A stretch of DNA of 64,000 bases from Candidatus Yanofskybacteria bacterium CG10_big_fil_rev_8_21_14_0_10_36_16 (GCA_002794035.1 PCXQ01000004.1:97213-161212); one strand, 5' to 3'. Shown: positions 10,792-61,675, counted from the first letter of the stretch. Numbers and translations are program-made. Notes: generated from the letters alone by a model not told the origin.

Positions 10792-10900
10792 TTTTCAATT
10801 CACAATTTTCAATCAATTTTCAGTGAATTAATTACTAAACAAAATTATTAAAAATTGAAAATTAAAAAATTCAATAAAAATTAAAAATTGAAAATTAAAA
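10792..10900. repeat. Intergenic GAAAATTG-rich repeat element, copy C (inverted orientation relative to copies A/B)
   Basis: Reverse complement contains ttttgtttagtaattaattcactgaaaattgattgaaaattgtgaattgaaaa matching 13066-13125 and 14472-14530. Confidence 0.6.
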
Positions 10901-10901
10901 A

Positions 10902-11336
10902 CTAAACAACTCCCAACTCCCCCAACTTCTCGGCTATCTGATCACTATTTTTTTCTAATTTATCTTTATACTCTCCCCATCTCTGATCATCCCAAATTTC
11001 AAGGCGGTTAAATAAGCCGGCTACAATCGCTTTCTTTTTTAACATGCCGTAATCTCTAAGATAATCAGGTATAAGAACTCTTCCGAGTTGATCAACTTCA
11101 ACTTCAACTGCACCCGACAAAAGAAGTCTTACAAAACCCCTTGTGTCTCCCTGACCAAAGGGTAACTTACCCAACTTTTCTGCTAGTTGTTCCCACTCTT
11201 TCATGGGGAAAAGAAACAAACAATTATCTAATCCTCTTGTTAAAACTGTTTTGTCACCAATCTCTCTGCGTAATTTTGCAGGTATTGAAATTCTCTTTTT
11301 TGCATCAATTGTGTGTTTATATTCACCTATTAACAA
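10902..11336 (-). CDS. mraZ: Division/cell wall cluster transcriptional regulator MraZ
   Basis: Double MraZ/SpoVT-AbrB-like halves, 144 aa, first gene of dcw cluster. Confidence 0.9.
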   Translation of the reverse strand: MLIGEYKHTIDAKKRISIPAKLRREIGDKTVLTRGLDNCLFLFPMKEWEQLAEKLGKLPFGQGDTRGFVRLLLSGAVEVEVDQLGRVLIPDYLRDYGMLKKKAIVAGLFNRLEIWDDQRWGEYKDKLEKNSDQIAEKLGELGVV

Positions 11337-12038: not shown

Positions 12039-13034
12039 TTATTTTTTACGGCTTACTACTTTCTTTACTGCTTCTTTAATTGCCGGTACATCCAGCCCAA
12101 ATTCTTTCATTAACTCATCAGCGTTACCTGATTCACCAAACCTGTCTTTAACACCGATAAACTCCTGAGGCACAGGATAATGCTGGGCAAGCGTTTCAGC
12201 AACAGCAGAACCAAGACCTCCTATTACTTGGTGTTCCTCAACAGACACCACGGCACCGGATTTTTTAGCTTCACCAACAACTGTTTCAACATCAAACGGC
12301 TTTAATGAAGGTGAATTAACTACACCAACATCTAGGCCTTCTTTTGATAATTCTTCGGCGGCAACCAATGCATCATAAACCAACATACTTGCAGCAACTA
12401 TAGTTGCATCCTTACCCTCCCTAAACACTTGGGCCTTACCTACTTCAAATGGGGTATCCTCTGTTGTAAACACTGGGGAATTATCACGTGCAAATCTAAT
12501 ATAAACCGGCCCAGGCAATTTTGCAGCAGCAAGAGTTGCCTTTTTTGCCTCAACAGCATCGCATGGCACAAGCACGGTCATTCTAGGAATCATTCTCATA
12601 AGCCCCGCATCTTCCAAAGCTTGATGAGTTGCTCCATCGGGTCCAACTGAAATACCAGCATGTGCTCCGCCTATTTTAACCGGTACATTATTCAAAGCCG
12701 CTGTGGTTCTCAATTGTTCATTGTTTCTACCGGGAGAAAATGCTGCATAAGATGATATAAAAGGTATCTTTCCTGCCAAAGCAAGTCCGGCGGCAACTGT
12801 AGCCATATTCTGTTCTGCAACACCCATTTCTATATATCTTTCAGGAAACTTTTCTTTAAACCAATGCGTACGAGTTGATTCAGCAAGGTCGGCGCACAGA
12901 ACAACCACATTTTTATCTTTTTCTCCTGCCTCAATCAAACCCTTCCCATATCCATCACGGGTTGGTGCCATTTCAAGCTTATCCTTATCTGTTAAGTTGT
13001 CTACTAAATGCATTTTTTCGTTAATCATAATCAA
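12039..13034 (-). CDS. Transketolase, C-terminal (pyrimidine-binding) subunit
   Basis: Split transketolase: Pyr-binding and C-terminal domains, paired with N-terminal subunit gene at 13545..14432. Confidence 0.85.
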   Translation of the reverse strand: MIMINEKMHLVDNLTDKDKLEMAPTRDGYGKGLIEAGEKDKNVVVLCADLAESTRTHWFKEKFPERYIEMGVAEQNMATVAAGLALAGKIPFISSYAAFSPGRNNEQLRTTAALNNVPVKIGGAHAGISVGPDGATHQALEDAGLMRMIPRMTVLVPCDAVEAKKATLAAAKLPGPVYIRFARDNSPVFTTEDTPFEVGKAQVFREGKDATIVAASMLVYDALVAAEELSKEGLDVGVVNSPSLKPFDVETVVGEAKKSGAVVSVEEHQVIGGLGSAVAETLAQHYPVPQEFIGVKDRFGESGNADELMKEFGLDVPAIKEAVKKVVSRKK

Positions 13035-13039
13035 TAAAT

Positions 13040-13135
13040 TTTTAATTTGTAATTTTTAATTTTAAAAAAATTTTGTTTAGTAATTAATTCACTGAAAATT
13101 GATTCAAAATTGTGAATTGAAAATTAATGACACAC
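13040..13135. repeat. Intergenic GAAAATTG-rich repeat element, copy A
   Basis: About 95 nt nearly identical to 14440-14545; lies 5-95 nt upstream of transketolase C-subunit start. Confidence 0.6.
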
Positions 13136-14432: not shown

Positions 14433-14439
14433 CTAAAAA

Positions 14440-14545
14440 ATTTTTAATTTTGTAATTTTTAATTTTAAAAAAATTTTGTTTAGTAATTAATTCACTAAAA
14501 ATTGATTGAAAATTGTGAATTGAAAATTGAAAATTAGAAACATCT
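14440..14545. repeat. Intergenic GAAAATTG-rich repeat element, copy B
   Basis: Near-identical to copy A; upstream of transketolase N-subunit start. Confidence 0.6.
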
Positions 14546-53697: not shown

Positions 53698-55488
53698 CTA
53701 ATTTCTTATATTATAAAGTTTATAAAAATGAGAATCTTTATCTGATAAAAGCTTATCAGGAGTTCCCTGTTCAACTATTTTACCTTTTTCCAAAACTATA
53801 AGCTTGTCTGAATTTTTAACAGTTGACAGTCGGTGAGCAATAGCAAGAACAGTAACTCTCCCCTTAAGATTTTCTATGGCTTTTTGAATAGCTATTTCCG
53901 ATTTAGCATCTAGAGAACTAGTTGCCTCATCTAATATCAAAATTTCTGGCTGCCTTGCTAAGGTTCTTGCCAAAGCAATTCTTTGTCTTTGACCACCCGA
54001 AAGTTTTAAACCTCTTTCACCAATATTTGTATCATATCCCTCTGGAAGCTTTTTTATAAAATCGTGAATATTTGATAATTTAGCTGCATGTTCAACATCT
54101 TGATTTGTTATTGTTGAATCATAAAATTTTATATTATTTTTTATAGTATCATTCATCATAAAAACATCTTGTGGCACATAACCAATTTTTCTTCTCCAAC
54201 TTTTAATATTAAATTCTGAGATATTTTTCCCATCTACCAAAATTTCTCCGGATGAAGGATAGAACAATCTTAAAATTAAATCTGCTATGGTGGTTTTACC
54301 AGCACCAGACACACCAACCAAGCCTACCATTTCTCCCTTTTTTATTTCAAAATTAACATTTGATATAACCTTTGTAGAATCTTCGTAAGCAAAAGAAATA
54401 TCTTTTAGTTCTATCTTGTCTTTAAATTCAAAATTAACAGATCCTGAGTATTCTTCTTTGTTTGATGTAGCCAAGGACCTAAAATCAATAACGGTTTGAA
54501 CATAAGGAGACATCTCGCTTATTCTATGAATGCTACCCTGAGCTGCCTGAATGAAAGAAAACATTTTTTGAATCAAATACACAACAGCACCAAATGATAT
54601 AACACTAAAGCTTGGAGAATTTAAATAAAAACCAAACAATATAGCCACAAAAACAAAACCCACCGGCTCAAATATGGAACCGACGGAATGCACATAAATA
54701 GAAACTTGCACCCTAGCCTTTTTTAAATTTTCAAAATAACCCAAGCTTTTATTAGTTACTCTATCTTCTGCAGAAGATGTTTTAACTATTTTAGATCCCA
54801 AAATACTCTCGCTTACATGATGCGTTACTAATTTTTCGGTATCGGCAAGTTCTTTTGACTTAGATCTTGTCTTGTAAAAAATTGGCTTAAACACAAACAG
54901 CAAAAATAAACCAAACACCATCGTAACAATGGTAATAACGGCAGATATATTAAACGCAACAATTGCGTACATGAAAAAACTAGTTGTAAATATAATCAAC
55001 GTACTTAAATGCACAAACATTCTGGAACTAATCGTAACATCATTCATTAAAACTCGCTCAACATATCCAAGACGTTGATTAATTAAATAAGGCCACCTTG
55101 AATGCATAACCTTATTGAAAAGATCAGCCCTTACCTCCTCTTCATATTCTGCCGCTGTTTTATCATTTATATATTTATACAAAAAATTAATTACCCCTTT
55201 AATTATAAACATTACTGTTATAAAAAAGACTACAGACATCAAACTGAATGGAATATGCAAAAATTCAAAAACACTTTTTAGTAATTCTGTGATCGCATTA
55301 CCTTCCTCTACCAAATCCCCTGCGACAATTGAAAAAAGAGGTATTATAGCTCCAACACCAAAACCACCCGACAAACCGGACAAAACCCCCAAAACAAAAA
55401 TAAGCAATAATCTTTTTCTATACCTCCTAAACCCCCTAAAAGCCAGTCTTATTATTCGTTTTATTTTTTTGCTATTAATTAAAAACAT
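53698..55488 (-). CDS. ABC transporter, fused permease/ATPase exporter (MsbA-like)
   Basis: 6-TM domain + Walker A GVSGAGKTT, signature LSGGQRQRIALAR, Walker B ILILDEATS. Confidence 0.85.
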   Translation of the reverse strand: MFLINSKKIKRIIRLAFRGFRRYRKRLLLIFVLGVLSGLSGGFGVGAIIPLFSIVAGDLVEEGNAITELLKSVFEFLHIPFSLMSVVFFITVMFIIKGVINFLYKYINDKTAAEYEEEVRADLFNKVMHSRWPYLINQRLGYVERVLMNDVTISSRMFVHLSTLIIFTTSFFMYAIVAFNISAVITIVTMVFGLFLLFVFKPIFYKTRSKSKELADTEKLVTHHVSESILGSKIVKTSSAEDRVTNKSLGYFENLKKARVQVSIYVHSVGSIFEPVGFVFVAILFGFYLNSPSFSVISFGAVVYLIQKMFSFIQAAQGSIHRISEMSPYVQTVIDFRSLATSNKEEYSGSVNFEFKDKIELKDISFAYEDSTKVISNVNFEIKKGEMVGLVGVSGAGKTTIADLILRLFYPSSGEILVDGKNISEFNIKSWRRKIGYVPQDVFMMNDTIKNNIKFYDSTITNQDVEHAAKLSNIHDFIKKLPEGYDTNIGERGLKLSGGQRQRIALARTLARQPEILILDEATSSLDAKSEIAIQKAIENLKGRVTVLAIAHRLSTVKNSDKLIVLEKGKIVEQGTPDKLLSDKDSHFYKLYNIRN

Positions 55489-55511: not shown

Positions 55512-55793
55512 TTACCAATCTTTAATATTATTTTTAATATTTTTTTTAAAATCTTGATAACTTGCTACTGCCTTTCTCTCAACAGAAGGAGACAAAACAC
55601 GCAAAAGTTCTTTACCCATTATTCGATATTGTCCACCAACCTTATTTGCCCTAATTATTCCAGTTTTTAATAATCTTTTTATGGTACTCTCGCTTATCTT
55701 AAGCAACCCCCTAGCTTCGGAGGTTGTATATACTTCATTATGATTAATTTCTTTGTTAGAATTCTCGATCATATACATATTAAAACGTATCAA
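55512..55793 (-). CDS. Small HTH DNA-binding protein (HTH_17/excisionase-MerR-like)
   Basis: YTTSEARGLLKISESTIKRLLKTGIIRANKVGGQYRI resembles HTH_17. Confidence 0.5.
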   Translation of the reverse strand: MIRFNMYMIENSNKEINHNEVYTTSEARGLLKISESTIKRLLKTGIIRANKVGGQYRIMGKELLRVLSPSVERKAVASYQDFKKNIKNNIKDW

Positions 55794-55828: not shown

Positions 55829-55855
55829 AAAAAGCGGCCTTGTACCGCTTTTTTA
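55829..55855. terminator. Bidirectional hairpin terminator (agcgg-ccttgta-ccgct flanked by A/T runs)
   Basis: Hairpin + T-run on both strands at stop of GT-C gene. Confidence 0.5.
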
Positions 55856-57529
55856 CTCTACCATCGCCTCTTCTGATTTTTTACAATCATATATTATAGC
55901 TGGGATGTGGCCTGAGTATTTTTGGTAGATTATTTTGCAGGAATCAAAATATTTTGTGTACATACTATCTTCTTCTATTTTTGGAATGTTTATAACAAGA
56001 TAATGGCCGTGAAAACTATTTAGTAAATCTGCATGTACTTTTTCATTTTTTGGTATAGCATAAATTCTTTTTTCATATTTACCAATATTAGTTAGCTCTG
56101 TCCCGCCAATATCACGGTAAGTTATTATGCTTTTAATTTCATCATTATCTTCTATATATCTCACGGCATTATTTAAAAGTGCATAAGAATCACCGTTAAA
56201 TTTACCGAATAAATACTCTTCAACAAAAATAAAATTGTACAGAGCACCCACCACTAATACTGCAATTAAAACGCCCTGCCTCAACTTTCTTTTTGCAAAA
56301 TACAATACAACTAGCGTTGCTGTTAAAATCCATACAACTCCAATAAATAACCACGAAACATAAAAACCAAGAGGACCAGAACCACCCGTAAAAGGAAACA
56401 AGAAGTTCCAATCAAAACTTAAAATTCTGCCAAACCATTCCTCTTTTGGATACTGTGGAGGTGCAACATGGGGCAAGAAATTTATAAACAACAAAACAGC
56501 TCCGGCATATAAAGCCCAAAAAACACTTAATTTATTTTTTAACACCTGCCTTATACCTCCTGCCCCTTTTAAAAAATCTGAAATAGCAACACCTGATATC
56601 ACAGAAAGAGGTACGACAATCAAAGCCAGGTATTTATCCAGTGCTGCACGGGAAAAATCAAATAAAACCACATAAAAAAGAAAACTTAAAATAAAAAATA
56701 TTATAAAAATCCTTATTTCAGCCAATCGTTTTCTGGTGATAAAAAACGGAATTGCAATAAGCAATGGAGATGCATAAAAAATAGCTTTTGAAACTTGTAT
56801 TAATATCTGTAGATAGCTTCTCCCTGAAATATTTGAAAAATCACGAGCATAATTAATTGCCTTCAATACGCCACCGTCTTGTAAGATTGATTCGGCCCTA
56901 AAAAATAAAAATCCCCCAACAGCCAAAATACCCAAAACCAAAAAAGTAGTACCTCTAATAAGCTTCTTTGAAAACAGGTGCCTTTTCTCAAATATGAAGT
57001 CCGTAATTATTGCACCAATTAATATAATAAAGCTTAGCTTAGTAAAAAATCCTAAGGCTAATGAAACTAAAAGCGCTATCCCCCATTTATAACTATCCAC
57101 CTCTCTAAATTTAAAATAATAAACTAAGGACAACAAAAAGGAAAATGGTAAAACAGCCCCATCCAAATCAACAGTATGAGAAGCTAAAACACTATAGAAA
57201 GATATTGAAAAAAATAAAGATGACCATAATGCTGCCTTTATGCCAAACCAGCGTTTTACAAGATAATAAAGTAAAAATAAATTAGCGATACTAAAAATAA
57301 ACGGAGTAAATCTAAAATTATCATTGCCAAAAACTGTTGCCGTTAAGCTCCACAAAAACTCCCCAATGGGCGGATGAGGTGTATCAATCATCTCCCCGCT
57401 GCCAAACGGGCCAACCCCGGCATATTTACGTTCATCCTGAAAGTAAGAAAAATCCAATCCCCAAACGCGAATTAAAATAAAAATTGCCAAAATTATGGCA
57501 AGAATAATAATTTCTTTCTTTCTATTCAT
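55853..57529 (-). CDS. GT-C fold polytopic membrane glycosyltransferase (ArnT/PMT-like, GT39/83-type)
   Basis: About 12 TM helices, DE-containing first extracytoplasmic loop (YFQDERKY), C-terminal soluble domain. Confidence 0.55.
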   Translation of the reverse strand: MNRKKEIIILAIILAIFILIRVWGLDFSYFQDERKYAGVGPFGSGEMIDTPHPPIGEFLWSLTATVFGNDNFRFTPFIFSIANLFLLYYLVKRWFGIKAALWSSLFFSISFYSVLASHTVDLDGAVLPFSFLLSLVYYFKFREVDSYKWGIALLVSLALGFFTKLSFIILIGAIITDFIFEKRHLFSKKLIRGTTFLVLGILAVGGFLFFRAESILQDGGVLKAINYARDFSNISGRSYLQILIQVSKAIFYASPLLIAIPFFITRKRLAEIRIFIIFFILSFLFYVVLFDFSRAALDKYLALIVVPLSVISGVAISDFLKGAGGIRQVLKNKLSVFWALYAGAVLLFINFLPHVAPPQYPKEEWFGRILSFDWNFLFPFTGGSGPLGFYVSWLFIGVVWILTATLVVLYFAKRKLRQGVLIAVLVVGALYNFIFVEEYLFGKFNGDSYALLNNAVRYIEDNDEIKSIITYRDIGGTELTNIGKYEKRIYAIPKNEKVHADLLNSFHGHYLVINIPKIEEDSMYTKYFDSCKIIYQKYSGHIPAIIYDCKKSEEAMVE

Positions 57530-57551: not shown

Positions 57552-57590
57552 TACACACATCCTTAAATTCTCAAGTTTTTCAGTATGTAT
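57552..57590. promoter_or_regulatory. Conserved upstream motif copy 1 (acacatccttaaattctcaagttttt...), candidate operator
   Basis: 28-nt exact match to 58821-58848; 22-60 nt upstream of GT-C start. Confidence 0.55.
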
Positions 57591-57622
57591 TTTGTGTGGT
57601 GTAATACTTTATAATTTATATT

Positions 57623-58795
57623 TTAGAATTTAAAACTTCCAAAAAATTCATAAAATTTCTGGGCAATCACACTGTTTGAGTAATGATTAATAACATAATT
57701 GCGCCCAGCTTCGCCAAAACGTTTTTTTAATTCTTTATCCTTAGCCAATCTTAACATAGCCTCAGCCAGTTGGGCTTGGTTATTCTCCTCAACTAAAATA
57801 CCGGTTATCTCATCTACTACCACATCTTCTATCGAACCTGATTTTGTAGCAATAACAGGCAATTCGCAAAGCGACGCTTCTGCCATGGAATAACCAAACT
57901 GTTCAGCCCATCCCTTATTACTAATACTAGGGTATAAAAATATATCAGATGATGCCAAGAGTTCCGGAAGTTCTTCATGACTAAGCCAAGGAATTCTTAT
58001 AACATATTTTTTAATTTTTAAGTCACCAATCAATTCATCAATCTCTTTTTCATATTCTCCTGATCCTGCAATAATAAAACAAGTGTCGGGTAAATTCTTT
58101 TTTATTTCAGCAAAGGATTTAAGGGCTACATGTACTCCCTTTCTATATCCTATGGCACCAGCAAAAGCAAATACTATTTTATTTTCTAATTTATGTTTTT
58201 TTATAAAACCAGATGCATTACTTGGTTTAAATTTAAATTCATCTAGTCCGGCAATAGGAATAACATCAAGTGGCTTATCAGTGAGGCCCAAAAATATTTC
58301 CTTACATTTTTTGTTGCCACAAACCACTCCGTCAACGAACTTTATATTAAGCTTTAAAATTAATTTCAAAACAAAACCTTTTGGACCCTTAAATTTTTCA
58401 TCAAAAGGAATATTTTCCCAACTGAATACGACGTGCTTTAGTCCAAATATTTTTGCCCAAATTCCATTCCAAAGCGTTGAAAGCAAAACTGGTTCTAAAG
58501 CACTATAAAGCATTTTTACATCTTTTGTTTTTGCCAGCGCCAAATGAAAAGGCAAAAACGGCATCCAGCCCTTAAGAGTTCCCCCGATAAGCGGATAATT
58601 TGAATGATAAAAAAGAGTAGTTGTTTTGCGTATCTTTAAATAATTGTTTTTGGGCGGTCTGTATTCTACTTTACCCCCTTTTGCCTTCCATAGTCTTGGC
58701 AACAAAAAAACCAAATCCTCAGGCTTGGGATATTTTTCAAACGTCTTTATATATGACTCTTTGATATACGGATAACCCGTAACTAATATCTTCAT
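57623..58795 (-). CDS. Glycosyltransferase family 1 (GT4)
   Basis: GT-B C-terminal domain with EX7E motif (EQFGYSMAEASLCELPVIAT). Confidence 0.8.
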   Translation of the reverse strand: MKILVTGYPYIKESYIKTFEKYPKPEDLVFLLPRLWKAKGGKVEYRPPKNNYLKIRKTTTLFYHSNYPLIGGTLKGWMPFLPFHLALAKTKDVKMLYSALEPVLLSTLWNGIWAKIFGLKHVVFSWENIPFDEKFKGPKGFVLKLILKLNIKFVDGVVCGNKKCKEIFLGLTDKPLDVIPIAGLDEFKFKPSNASGFIKKHKLENKIVFAFAGAIGYRKGVHVALKSFAEIKKNLPDTCFIIAGSGEYEKEIDELIGDLKIKKYVIRIPWLSHEELPELLASSDIFLYPSISNKGWAEQFGYSMAEASLCELPVIATKSGSIEDVVVDEITGILVEENNQAQLAEAMLRLAKDKELKKRFGEAGRNYVINHYSNSVIAQKFYEFFGSFKF

Positions 58796-58818
58796 TCATA
58801 CCCCCACTCCTTTATCTA

Positions 58819-58852
58819 TACACATCCTTAAATTCTCAAGTTTTTAAGGATG
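58819..58852. promoter_or_regulatory. Conserved upstream motif copy 2 with perfect 10-bp inverted repeat catccttaaa-N10-tttaaggatg
   Basis: Perfect IR seen in sequence; 24-57 nt upstream of GT4 start. Confidence 0.6.
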
Positions 58853-58900
58853 TAATTTGATTTTGTGGGTTTATAAATTAAAAAATGGATTTTTACTTTA

Positions 58901-59188
58901 TTATTGTTCCAATTGAAATGCTTTTAAAAACTTAACAAACCTTTTACCATACGGGGAGAGGGTGTGTTCAACAAAATGATCGCGATATTTTTTATTAAGT
59001 AACCCTGCCGTAAAAAGTCGTCTAGTGTGCTCACCAATTGTTTTCTCATTTGCTTTTAGTGTTTTGGCTATTTTTTCTAAAGTTATTTTTGGACTATCTG
59101 CTACGAGCAGAAGAATCTCTATACGATAATGGTTGGCTATTCCTTTTAGGTGCCTCTCCATTTGTTTTGCTGTTTTGGTTTTATTCAT
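58901..59188 (-). CDS. ArsR/SmtB-like winged-helix transcriptional regulator
   Basis: HLKGIANHYRIEILLLV resembles ArsR HTH; likely start MNKTKTAKQ at 59188. Confidence 0.5.
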   Translation of the reverse strand: MNKTKTAKQMERHLKGIANHYRIEILLLVADSPKITLEKIAKTLKANEKTIGEHTRRLFTAGLLNKKYRDHFVEHTLSPYGKRFVKFLKAFQLEQ

Positions 59189-59202
59189 AATGTTTCTAGT
59201 AT

Positions 59203-59239
59203 ACACAGCATACTTAAATTCTTAAGTTTTTAAGGATAT
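59203..59239. promoter_or_regulatory. Conserved upstream motif copy 3 (acacagcatacttaaattcttaagtttttaaggata)
   Basis: Degenerate copy of the motif, 15-51 nt upstream of the ArsR-like gene. Confidence 0.5.
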
Positions 59240-59255
59240 ATTTTTGTTGGTGTTT

Positions 59256-60284
59256 TCATTTTATAATCTTTGTTATTTTATCTATTAATTTGTCTACGGA
59301 ATGATTATCTGTTACATATTGCCTTAATTCGTTACCGTAATCTCTGTCTTTAACTTCCATAATTTTTTTAGCTAAATAATCAGGGTTATCTTCTCTAAGT
59401 ATCAATTCCTCAGGCAAAAATTCACGAGCAGAATCATTGGAGCTTAACACGATACACCCAGAAGCCATTGCCTCCAAAATAGTTTTATCTAAACTCCCTG
59501 TCTGGCTTAAATTTATATAAATACGATGAGAGCTGTAATATTCGGGCAAATCTTTATTGGCTATTTTGCCAATAAATTTAACACTACTCTCTAAACCAAA
59601 ATCTTCAACCTTTTCTTTAAGTTCTCGCTCATATTCTTTCTCTTCTTCATAAACCGGTGCGCCAATAATATCAAGCTCAAAATCTATACCTTTGTCTCTA
59701 ATAATTTTCATAGCCTCAACAAGATTGTTGTAATTTTTAATCCTAGAAATCCTCCCCACGCTTAGTATTTTTAATTTAGAATTTTGGGTTTTGAAGTTTG
59801 GATTTGGTACAAAAAGCGATGTGTCTATACCTTGCCCCACGATATTAAGCTTTGGGGTCTTTAAACGAAAACCTTGAGGCGTTGATGCAAAAATCCCATC
59901 AACAAATTTTTCAGCAACCCGATGTTTCCATGTTATGGTTTTATGTGCATACCAAAGATAAACATCCTTGCCAAGAAAACTCCACAACCACGCCCCCACC
60001 ACGACATAAATAGCACTCATGTGAACAAAGACCGATTGATACTCCTTCCTGCACTCCCATGACATTTTATAAAGATTCAACAGCCACAAAATTTTAGGCA
60101 AACCCCTATCTTTGCCTAAGCTATAAACTTTAACATTGTCCGGTAAATTAAAATTGCCTTTTTCAAGACATAAAATATTTATCTTTTCGTATTTTTTAGC
60201 AAATTCTTTTATCCAGCTAATAAAAAACCCCAGTAACTGGTCATCGTCGTCTATACTTTTTGTAATTATTAGTAAGCCCCTCAT
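59256..60284 (-). CDS. Glycosyltransferase family 1 (GT4)
   Basis: GT-B C-terminal domain ILEAMASGCIVLSSN. Confidence 0.8.
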   Translation of the reverse strand: MRGLLIITKSIDDDDQLLGFFISWIKEFAKKYEKINILCLEKGNFNLPDNVKVYSLGKDRGLPKILWLLNLYKMSWECRKEYQSVFVHMSAIYVVVGAWLWSFLGKDVYLWYAHKTITWKHRVAEKFVDGIFASTPQGFRLKTPKLNIVGQGIDTSLFVPNPNFKTQNSKLKILSVGRISRIKNYNNLVEAMKIIRDKGIDFELDIIGAPVYEEEKEYERELKEKVEDFGLESSVKFIGKIANKDLPEYYSSHRIYINLSQTGSLDKTILEAMASGCIVLSSNDSAREFLPEELILREDNPDYLAKKIMEVKDRDYGNELRQYVTDNHSVDKLIDKITKIIK

Positions 60285-60299
60285 TTAAATCTTTTATTA

Positions 60300-60475
60300 G
60301 GTTAATAACTCGTACGTTTGCCCAAGTTCGAGACAAAATGGTTGAGGAATGATGAGGCGTACTGTAGCTACGTCGAATTATTCCGAAACCATTTTAACAA
60401 AGAAATTGGGTAAACCTTCTTAGGCTTGAGCAGGATAAGCCCGTTTGGTTAGGGCTTCCTGCGAAAGCGTGCGAG
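60300..60475. other. GC-enriched structured intergenic element (nested stems aatggtt/aaccatt, ggaat/attcc), related to element at 61676..61770
   Basis: Compositional island in AT-rich background; nested complementarity; partial similarity to reverse complement of 61690-61765. Confidence 0.35.
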
Positions 60476-61675
60476 TTATAAAGAATTTAAAATTTCCATA
60501 TGACCAGCAACCACCTTATCCCATGTTTGCTCTATCATAATAGTATTAAGTTCACTTTTTGCATTTTTATAAAAGTCATCCTTAAGAAAGTTTCTCATTG
60601 TTTCTTCAAGTTCCTCTTCATTCTTTGCTGAAAACTGCCAACTATTGGGCAATTTTATGGTAAGGCCATTTTCACGGCTTAATATTGCCGGCACACCAAA
60701 TGACAAGCATTCTAAAATAAAATTGGGGTTAAATTCAGTAAGCGCCGGTCCTATGCAAACAGAGGAGTTTTTTATGTGATCAAATAAATCTTCTTGTGGC
60801 ATTGAGGGCAGAATCGTTATTTTATCCCGGGAGCTAAGGCCTCTGATAATATTTCTTAACTTTTCTTCATCAGGCCCCTTCCCAATTAATTTTAATCTTG
60901 CCCTGCCATCATCTTTACTTATTTTATCAAAAACCTTAAGTACTAATTCTAGGTTCTTATATGAAACAAATCTACCTGCAAAAAGAAAAGTAAATTCATC
61001 ATCAGTATTATTTTCTAAAAATTCTCTTCTAAAAACTGGGTTATAAATTATCTTAATTCTTTCCGCTGAAACCCCATAATATTTTTCATAAAATTTCTGC
61101 CAAAAATCAGAATAAAGAACAATTACGTCTGTATGATTAAGCATGTAACGAATAACCCTAAAAAGATTTGGATTATCCTTCATATAATATCCGTCTTTAT
61201 AATACTCCAGTATTGATAAAAATCTTTTATTGTACTCAACAACCCTTTCCCAAATAGGATCGCCGCCAAATCTTGAAACAATTTTCTTTCCTAGTATTTT
61301 GGCGGATAAAAAAGCAGGGATACCTGAACTTGTTAGATTAAAATAATAAACAATGTCTGAGCCTAAAGTTTGCCTAAATACAGCAAAAAAATACTTTATC
61401 ATTTTAATTGGCAATGGCTGGCTTCTTGGTATCCGAATTACCCTAAAATCAAAATCATCCTCTCCATCATAATCACTATAAGTCACCACAGAAACTCTCC
61501 AGCCATGTTTCACTAAGGCTTCTGAGATTTTTCTAACATGAATAGCCGGCCCACCAAGGTCAGGATAGAATATTCCCGTTGCTAGTACTACATTTTTCAT
61601 AAGACTTGTTCGCAAAATAATGGAGCCCTTATTTTTTTGGGGCTTTCCATTATTTTGCCCTACGGGTTTGCTCAA
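60476..61675 (-). CDS. Glycosyltransferase family 1 (GT4)
   Basis: GT-B C-terminal domain ILECLSFGVPAILSRENG. Confidence 0.8.
   Translation of the reverse strand: MSKPVGQNNGKPQKNKGSIILRTSLMKNVVLATGIFYPDLGGPAIHVRKISEALVKHGWRVSVVTYSDYDGEDDFDFRVIRIPRSQPLPIKMIKYFFAVFRQTLGSDIVYYFNLTSSGIPAFLSAKILGKKIVSRFGGDPIWERVVEYNKRFLSILEYYKDGYYMKDNPNLFRVIRYMLNHTDVIVLYSDFWQKFYEKYYGVSAERIKIIYNPVFRREFLENNTDDEFTFLFAGRFVSYKNLELVLKVFDKISKDDGRARLKLIGKGPDEEKLRNIIRGLSSRDKITILPSMPQEDLFDHIKNSSVCIGPALTEFNPNFILECLSFGVPAILSRENGLTIKLPNSWQFSAKNEEELEETMRNFLKDDFYKNAKSELNTIMIEQTWDKVVAGHMEILNSL

Follow-up and report, generated by a model that had tools for sequence, protein, structure and literature searches.

A near-palindromic DNA element predicted to be the operator of an adjacent ArsR/SmtB-like autorepressor in Parcubacteria

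A near-palindromic element occurs three times around the gene for a 95-aa ArsR/SmtB-like winged-helix protein in a stretch of 64,000 nt (here called the window) from Candidatus Yanofskybacteria bacterium CG10_big_fil_rev_8_21_14_0_10_36_16 (GCA_002794035.1 PCXQ01000004.1:97213-161212). The element is likely to be the cognate DNA site of this adjacent protein, an autorepressor that would act on its own promoter and hold neighboring genes under the same control, with copies of the site having spread by insertion. This was deduced from the anatomy of the three copies, from the co-occurrence of element and gene in relatives, from the geometry of the regulator's promoter, from the co-variation of paralogues with their palindromes, and from copies inserted into coding genes. 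To our knowledge, transcriptional control in the candidate phyla radiation bacteria is almost unstudied, these organisms having very few regulators and not being able to be grown alone.

The window was analyzed with Pfam, NCBIfam and Rfam searches, an AlphaFold2 (AF2) model, Foldseek, a promoter scan and shuffles. Relatives were collected by seeding with the protein, which gave 80 GTDB loci (the upstream site being countable in 79 and the stop-codon site in 80), and by seeding with the motif only in a metagenome collection, which gave 120 loci with 195 sites.

Results

The first-pass annotation of this DNA had reported three copies of a motif, and these were recovered by each of three approaches. 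A direct-repeat family (D5) spans 57552-57594, 58817-58859 and 59203-59245; a 19-nt core, CTTAAATTCTYAAGTTTTT, has three exact occurrences in the window; and a 36-nt weight matrix, trained on relatives only with the window sites left out, returned exactly three sites over the 64 kb, all of them minus-strand, with scores of 41.7, 34.1 and 29.4 bits. Everywhere else in the window the score stayed below 8 bits, and among 20 shuffles the highest value was 7.3. When up to three mismatches to the core were allowed, the only extra match was an AT-rich sequence with three mismatches at 2538 (0.54 matches expected), and none of 100 shuffles reached four. With three sites only in the window scan, the motif is rare and non-random. 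Two details of the earlier description required correction: the longest run identical between two copies is 26 nt rather than 28, and the copies precede two glycosyltransferase genes and the regulator itself rather than three consecutive glycosylation genes. The identities given to the three genes, all on the minus strand, held. These are the regulator gene (58901-59188, from the open reading frame [ORF] list and Pfam HTH_5), with its start ATG at 59188 and the recognition helix NEKTIGEHTRRL; a GT4 glycosyltransferase gene (57623-58795; Pfam Glycos_transf_1, E = 5e-40), the putative target of site B; and a GT-C membrane glycosyltransferase gene (55853-57529; Pfam PMT_2, E = 7e-15), the putative target of site C.

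Site A (59206-59241, minus strand; ATATATCCTTAAAAACTTAAGAATTTAAGTATGCTG; 29.4 bits) is the putative promoter-operator of the regulator itself. Its arms lie at 59229-59238 and 59209-59218, with a -35-like TTAAGA at 59220-59225 in the dyad center, and the promoter scan called TTAAGA-16-TATACT at 59225-59198, placing the -10 hexamer TATACT at 59198-59203 on the minus strand. Since only nine nucleotides (AGAAACATT), with no Shine-Dalgarno sequence, separate TATACT from the ATG, the regulator mRNA is predicted to be leaderless or near-leaderless in the window. Site B (58820-58855, minus strand; TTACATCCTTAAAAACTTGAGAATTTAAGGATGTGT) is the best copy at 41.7 bits and lies 45 nt past the regulator stop codon. 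The middle copy had been described as a perfect inverted repeat with a 10-nt center, and site B was indeed found to be a perfect CATCCTTAAA-N10-TTTAAGGATG, which extends to an 11-N10-11 repeat. Site C (57555-57590, minus strand; ATACATACTGAAAAACTTGAGAATTTAAGGATGTGT) scores 34.1 bits and has a degenerate left arm. From the ends of the sites to the start codons the distances are 17 nt for A (59188), 24 nt for B (58795) and 25 nt for C (57529), and both B and C are followed by a Shine-Dalgarno sequence ahead of the start codon.

In the 80 GTDB loci, one element is the only alignable part of the 110 nt that precede the regulator gene: AACATCCTTACA-AACTTGAGAA-TGTAAGGATGT-TGTG-TATAAT-6 nt-ATG. The palindrome is present upstream of the gene, in the same architecture as site A, in 75 of 79 loci, and a second copy, of which site B is the counterpart, lies at or a few nucleotides past the stop codon in 75 of 80, with TAA often forming the first triplet of the element. 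The co-occurrence of regulator and motif in relatives is thus near universal, and the gene is bracketed by its two copies. The consensus of the element is AACATCCTTACAAACT-TG-AGAATGTAAGGATGTT, a near-palindrome of roughly 34-36 bp in which C7, A10, A12, C15, T16 and their mirror images are invariant, at distances of 2 to 14 bp from the dyad in both directions. Because the invariant positions reach 14 bp from the dyad, the 10-bp inverted repeat first described, although a real palindrome, is not the full element, which is a 16-2-16 near-palindrome.

The geometry of the regulator's own site in the relatives is TTGAGA (dyad center)-16 nt-TATAAT-6 nt-ATG, and the short A-rich stretch between TATAAT and ATG contains no Shine-Dalgarno sequence, which implies a leaderless mRNA there also. 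The dyad center would coincide with the -35 hexamer (TTGAGA; TTAAGA in the window) of a sigma-70-type promoter. With the palindrome placed on the -35 hexamer of its own promoter, a bound protein would occlude that hexamer and the spacer and so repress its own synthesis. Given the 34-36-bp element, two dimers per site would be likely. TAnnnT at a spacer of 15-18 nt was found in 87% of own sites, 14% of stop-codon copies and 16% of other copies, compared with 7% in the background, and only the regulator gene's own site is a predicted canonical promoter. The proposal that all copies are promoters was rejected on this ground, the spaced -10 box being confined to own sites. The same data bear on the idea that the element is a strong sigma-70 promoter class, palindromic by chance and with no dedicated repressor. 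Although the regulator gene has near-consensus TTGAGA and TATAAT hexamers 16 nt apart, the other copies mostly lack the -10 box, invariant positions are found as far as 14 bp from the dyad on both sides, well beyond the -35 hexamer, and the palindromes are paralogue-specific, as described below; this explanation is considered exceedingly unlikely.

Among the 195 sites from the motif-only metagenome search, 86 were brackets around a regulator homologue, and the non-bracket sites amounted to about 2.5 per regulator, giving about 4-5 sites per genome. Sites were 88% intergenic (17% expected) and were concentrated within 2 kb of the regulator. Their similarity was 78% between genomes and 82% within genomes; that sites are equally alike between and within genomes fits constraint by an invariant recognition helix. 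Concerted evolution or recent within-genome spread was rejected, as its signal was weak (0.82 versus 0.78). DNA looping with helical phasing between the bracket sites was also rejected, since the 335-bp mode of their spacing tracks gene length (range, 314-387; 386 in the window) and no phase signal was seen.

The assignment of the protein was made from several searches. Pfam HTH_5 (PF01022) matched the window protein at 22.0 bits, which is borderline as it falls exactly at the cut-off of 22, and the PF01022 hit is precomputed for most close homologues. Three family members reached just 22.3-38.6 bits for NCBIfam NF033788 (HTH_metalloreg), below its cut-off of 55 bits. The best PDB sequence matches were HlyU and CadC, at an E value of about 3e-4. 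The AF2 model (predicted local distance difference test score [pLDDT], 84.7) has the layout α1-α2-α3-αR-β1-β2-α5, with helices at 7-31, 37-44, 48-60 and 79-94 and a hairpin at 64-77, and its top Foldseek matches were HlyU, SqrR, CadC and SmtB, with a probability of 1.0 and a template-modeling (TM) score of about 0.7; MarR proteins and the centromere protein AspA were matched as well. By fold and sequence the protein therefore appears to belong to the ArsR/SmtB winged-helix group, through a relationship that is weak but consistent, and this supports the operator interpretation, as the family consists of autorepressors binding inverted repeats. No cysteine was found in a 20-sequence alignment, and the C-terminal helix, GKTFVRFLKSFQ, lacks the α5 Asp/His/His/Glu pattern. 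The family comprises 2073 homologues (clusters), the best 120 of which are 75-85% identical, and it spans Yanofsky-, Sung-, Giovannoni-, Harrison-, Lipton-, Doudna-, Uhr-, Kaiser- and Nealsonbacteria and others. An unexpected observation was that the regulator is more conserved than its neighbors. Between the window and a related locus, L002, it is 85% identical compared to 55-74% for six flanking genes, and over five genomes it averages 79% identity compared to 55% for MnmA from the same genomes.

A small winged-helix protein with few sites per genome, clustered around its own gene, could also mark a chromosomal landmark, either a polar replication-fork or transcription barrier like RTP/Ter of Bacillus subtilis or a centromere, as the match to AspA would suggest, rather than regulate genes. 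The sites are also not symmetric, and their orientation is that of the leading or coding strand. However, GC skew is negative throughout the 64-kb window with no switch, the bracket copies are co-oriented and not opposed, no par genes are adjacent, and gene direction confounds the test of site orientation against skew. A landmark function is on these grounds very improbable, and a replication origin or terminus within the window was rejected for want of a skew switch.

The interpretation of the element as the operator of the adjacent autorepressor was further supported by a paralogous subfamily that is 55-66% identical and carries the recognition helix NFK-T-I-S-E/Q-H in place of NEK-T-I-G-E-H of the main type. 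The genes of this subfamily are bracketed by a second family of palindromes (F2), AACATTCYNACATTCT-NN-AGAATGTNRGAATGTT (CATTC..ATTCT-NN-AGAAT..GAATG), often a perfect 36-mer, which was found around eight of eight NFK-type paralogues but only 2 of about 125 main-type genes. Such loci (NFKTISEH/NFKNISQH) are L007 7574-7956, L110 784-1140 and 2752-3100, L140 10757-11110, L116 147-475 and L168 1843-2430, together with L093, L015, L038 and others; both gene-palindrome pairs are present together in some genomes, side by side in L007, and F2 is absent from the window. Protein and putative operator co-vary between the paralogues. Autoregulation through a winged-helix operator, as suggested at the outset, is thus well supported by comparison, through the near-universal co-occurrence, the -35-centered palindrome and the paralogue co-variation. 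The stop-codon copy, along with another one to three copies in each genome, would place neighboring transcription units under the same protein, here GT4 and GT-C. As these other copies have no correctly spaced -10 hexamer, they are most likely not promoters and would work through promoter-proximal occlusion or as roadblocks. New copies come about through insertion of the palindrome, not through point mutation.

Several findings weigh against this interpretation. At sites B and C a spacer of only 13 nt separates TTGAGA from the -10-like hexamers (TATAGA and TGTAAT), and no promoter is called there by the scan, so that the effect of these sites on the glycosyltransferase genes is a putative one. 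No effector site is evident in the protein, and neither a canonical ArsR/SmtB α3N metal site nor an α5 site was found. The putative targets have no common function, 109 of them falling into 84 clusters. Coding genes harbor about ten independent copies, which share a single reading frame and encode ..H(P/T)(Y/N)(I/K)LEN(V/I)(R/G)M.., and about a quarter of the non-bracket intergenic sites lie between convergent genes with very few between divergent ones, both of which are untypical of operators. Finally, the asymmetric center keeps the orientation of transcription even where there is no -35 hexamer, a behavior for which a symmetric dimer site offers no explanation.

The copies inside genes were compared with the orthologues of their hosts. 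The hosts are MnmA (at two positions), TspO, TsaD, Fmt, HsdS and GT4, the assignments of TsaD, Fmt and HsdS being confirmed by Pfam, and the in-frame copies (..HPYILENVRM..-like) were located at L002 6780-6850, L017 3201, L040 7411, L027 5071, L071 5566, L084 575, L096 911, L149 7278, L172 1632, L182 523 and L194 631. In alignments they form extra loop segments missing from the orthologues, and the L002 GT4 gene differs from its orthologue in the window by an in-frame insertion of 18 aa (54 nt) that is a perfect 21-2-21 palindrome. It was concluded from this insertion and the extra loop segments that copies are made by insertion. The in-gene copies are still near consensus, which implies that they are still selected. 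L084 (IMG/VR contig IMGVR_UViG_3300025323_000435), which is filed as viral, has the regulator with its bracket sites and hosts one of the in-frame copies in its TspO gene; probably it stems not from a phage but from a prophage region or a piece of Parcubacteria DNA.

These insertions raise the possibility that the element is a self-dispersing miniature element of the repetitive extragenic palindrome (REP) or Rickettsia palindromic element (RPE) kind, in which the winged-helix gene would sit between copies in the manner of a REPtron and neighboring genes would be regulated as a by-product. In addition to the 54-nt palindrome and the other in-frame copies, the sites between convergent genes, the highly variable flanks of the regulator and the identity of some within-locus pairs are in favor of this. 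The copy number is, however, low, at about 4-5 per genome; near-consensus copies across classes, even inside diverged TspO genes, imply selection on the site; the protein has no catalytic domain and no transposase or integrase is enriched nearby; and the flanking copies are direct and not inverted (105:14). It was concluded that this explanation is possible, if unlikely. The putative operator nonetheless behaves like a dispersing palindromic element. A bolder reading is that of a new kind of miniature palindromic element, tethered to its protein and vertically ultra-conserved across Parcubacteria/Patescibacteria. Its operator copies would spread by inserting themselves between genes, at gene 3' ends and, in frame, within housekeeping genes, and the protein would use them as polar transcription roadblocks or insulators in tiny regulator-poor genomes; this is speculative and rather improbable.

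The non-bracket intergenic sites comprised 65 between co-directional genes, 20 between convergent and 3 between divergent genes. The ORF calls behind these counts were crude, and requiring a length of at least 120 aa for the ORFs on both sides lowers the ratio of convergent to divergent sites from 20:3 to about 8:3. The asymmetric center was co-oriented with local transcription by 105:14 for the stop-codon copies and by 44:21 for the others. An orientation that follows transcription, together with the many copies at gene 3' ends, that at the regulator stop codon included, could mean that the element functions not as double-stranded DNA but as an RNA hairpin, which might stabilize 3' ends, terminate transcription or, as a stem-loop with the conserved loop AACUUGAGAA, bind a protein. 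The left and right arms were also associated beyond shuffles at several pairs, although the shuffle control leaves relatedness in place. On the other hand, at the variable pairs 25-30% of sites have mismatches (U-U, C-U and C-A), both hybrid arm kinds occur, no T-run follows the element, and Rfam gives no match to it. The regulator's own copy also lies upstream of the predicted transcription start and hence outside that mRNA. A hairpin is thus deemed very unlikely, and a double-stranded operator site for the autorepressor is preferred.

The first-pass annotation had further proposed a small regulon of membrane glycosyltransferases, and this applies to the lineage of the window and L002 but not elsewhere. 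In L002 the order regulator-site-GT4-site-GT-C-HTH_17-ABC transporter is kept at 59-64% protein identity, the GT4 orthologue is likewise preceded by the second bracket copy, and the GT-C orthologue (59% identity) is likewise preceded by a site; the shared order indicates that the link to the two glycosyltransferases is conserved in this lineage. A G-rich degenerate repeat tract, GTGGTGTGTGTAGGTAGTGTGTGTAGTTGGTGGGGGGGATGGTGGGGGCGGGGTGGGTG, lies at L002 7311-7375 between the palindrome and the GT-C start and is absent from the window. The gene 3' of the regulator is co-directional in 59 of 74 loci and belongs to dozens of families, and the only recurrent targets, each seen three to five times, are MnmA, TspO, a SWIM protein, DUF7670 and one family of no known function. 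The 145 genes flanking the regulator match 137 Pfam families, with GT1 found twice, both times in L002, and show no enrichment of transposases, integrases or recombinases. A conserved glycosylation regulon was therefore rejected, as neighbors and targets are almost all different and the glycosyltransferase arrangement was found only in L002.

The other genes of the locus in the window are all on the minus strand, in the order GT4 (60476-61675), GT4 (59256-60284), winged-helix gene, GT4, GT-C/PMT_2, HTH_17 and ABC transporter. The first two, further upstream, have no motif copy. The ABC transporter gene lies at 53698-55488 (gene list and Pfam), and between it and the GT-C gene is a small HTH_17 (excisionase/MerR-like) gene at 55512-55793, which is kept at the equivalent position in L002 with 74% identity and could be a second regulator of the cluster. 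An A/C-rich extension is located directly upstream, in gene orientation, of all three copies of the element, at 57591-57606, 58856-58873 and 59242-59256 (ACACCACACAAAATA, ACCCACAAAATCAAATT and ACACCAACAAAAATA), and L002 has a similar extension, AACCACAACATT.

On the plus strand between the two upstream GT4 genes, a G+C-richer region of about 190 nt (60285-60475) has no ORF and is antisense to its neighbors. The minimum free energy of its plus-strand fold was -79.6 kcal/mol compared to -43.7 ± 4.2 in shuffles (z = -8.5), with a z of -4.7 for the minus strand, and Rfam gave no match even at E ≤ 1; it is a candidate novel structured RNA. The equivalent gap in L002 holds a 118-aa ORF whose N terminus resembles a four-helix-bundle (23S rRNA intervening sequence) protein, a resemblance noted by eye only. 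Far from this locus, an AT-rich direct repeat pair of 93 nt at 13033-13125 and 14436-14528 (94% identical, 1403 nt apart), with a weaker related copy near 10840-10909, looks like repeated intergenic leader or promoter regions.

Discussion

An ArsR-family autorepressor with an inverted-repeat operator is a known kind of system. Features that appear to be new are that the system described here is conserved in many Parcubacteria/Patescibacteria lineages, that the dyad is placed on the -35 hexamer together with a leaderless start, that the gene is bracketed, that the operators are paralogue-specific and that operators have been inserted into coding genes. No prior description of the system was found in the searchable literature, the coverage of which is incomplete, with the motif sequence included as a query. 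The sequence alone thus defines a putative regulator-operator pair across many Parcubacteria lineages, with an exact consensus, a predicted leaderless promoter and a natural paralogue specificity switch, and the predicted pair is directly testable with a 95-aa protein and 36-bp oligonucleotides. The operator copies in coding genes and at gene ends raise the question whether a cellular regulator's binding sites can spread in the manner of mobile elements and rewire small genomes.

The closest known systems are compared here in turn. The ArsR/SmtB autorepressors (SmtB, CzrA, CadC, HlyU and SqrR) share the fold, the small dimeric-type winged helix-turn-helix and a long inverted repeat with a 2-bp center over their own promoter, and negative autoregulation would be expected here too. 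ArsR/SmtB operators are imperfect 12-2-12 inverted repeats, whereas the operator proposed here is longer (16-2-16) and exactly -35-centered, with a predicted leaderless mRNA and a second copy at the stop codon. The window protein also differs in having no cysteine and no α3N or α5 metal site and in falling below the NCBIfam cut-offs. There is no resistance or efflux operon at the locus, the neighbors vary, and the conservation across Parcubacteria lineages is extreme.

The controller (C) proteins of restriction-modification systems, with their C-box, are similar in being small autoregulatory DNA-binding proteins with palindromes over the -35 hexamer and a leaderless transcript. C proteins bind as two dimers per operator region, an occupancy that we infer for the window protein from the length of its site. 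They are Xre-type helix-turn-helix proteins beside restriction-modification genes, in contrast to the winged helix found here, which has no such neighbors.

The replication terminator protein (RTP) and Ter sites of B. subtilis are similar in combining a small winged-helix protein with asymmetric sites of roughly 30 bp. RTP binds as two dimers per site, and its sites, few per genome, adjoin and autoregulate its own gene. Two dimers per site are likewise predicted for the window protein. In contrast to RTP/Ter, the locus shows no GC-skew switch, the bracket sites are not opposed, and RTP was not among the top fold matches.

The REP sequences with their RAYT genes (REPtrons) and RPE are alike in that short palindromes flank a dedicated gene and are mostly extragenic, often at 3' ends, and RPE in particular also insert in frame into coding genes, as was observed here for L002 GT4, TspO, MnmA, TsaD, Fmt and HsdS. 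Unlike in a REPtron, the flanked gene here encodes a winged helix-turn-helix protein with no HuH/Y1 catalytic domain, and the copies are few per genome and in direct orientation. Compared with RPE of 100-150 nt, the element described here is 36-54 nt in length, and its consensus is kept across deep lineages.

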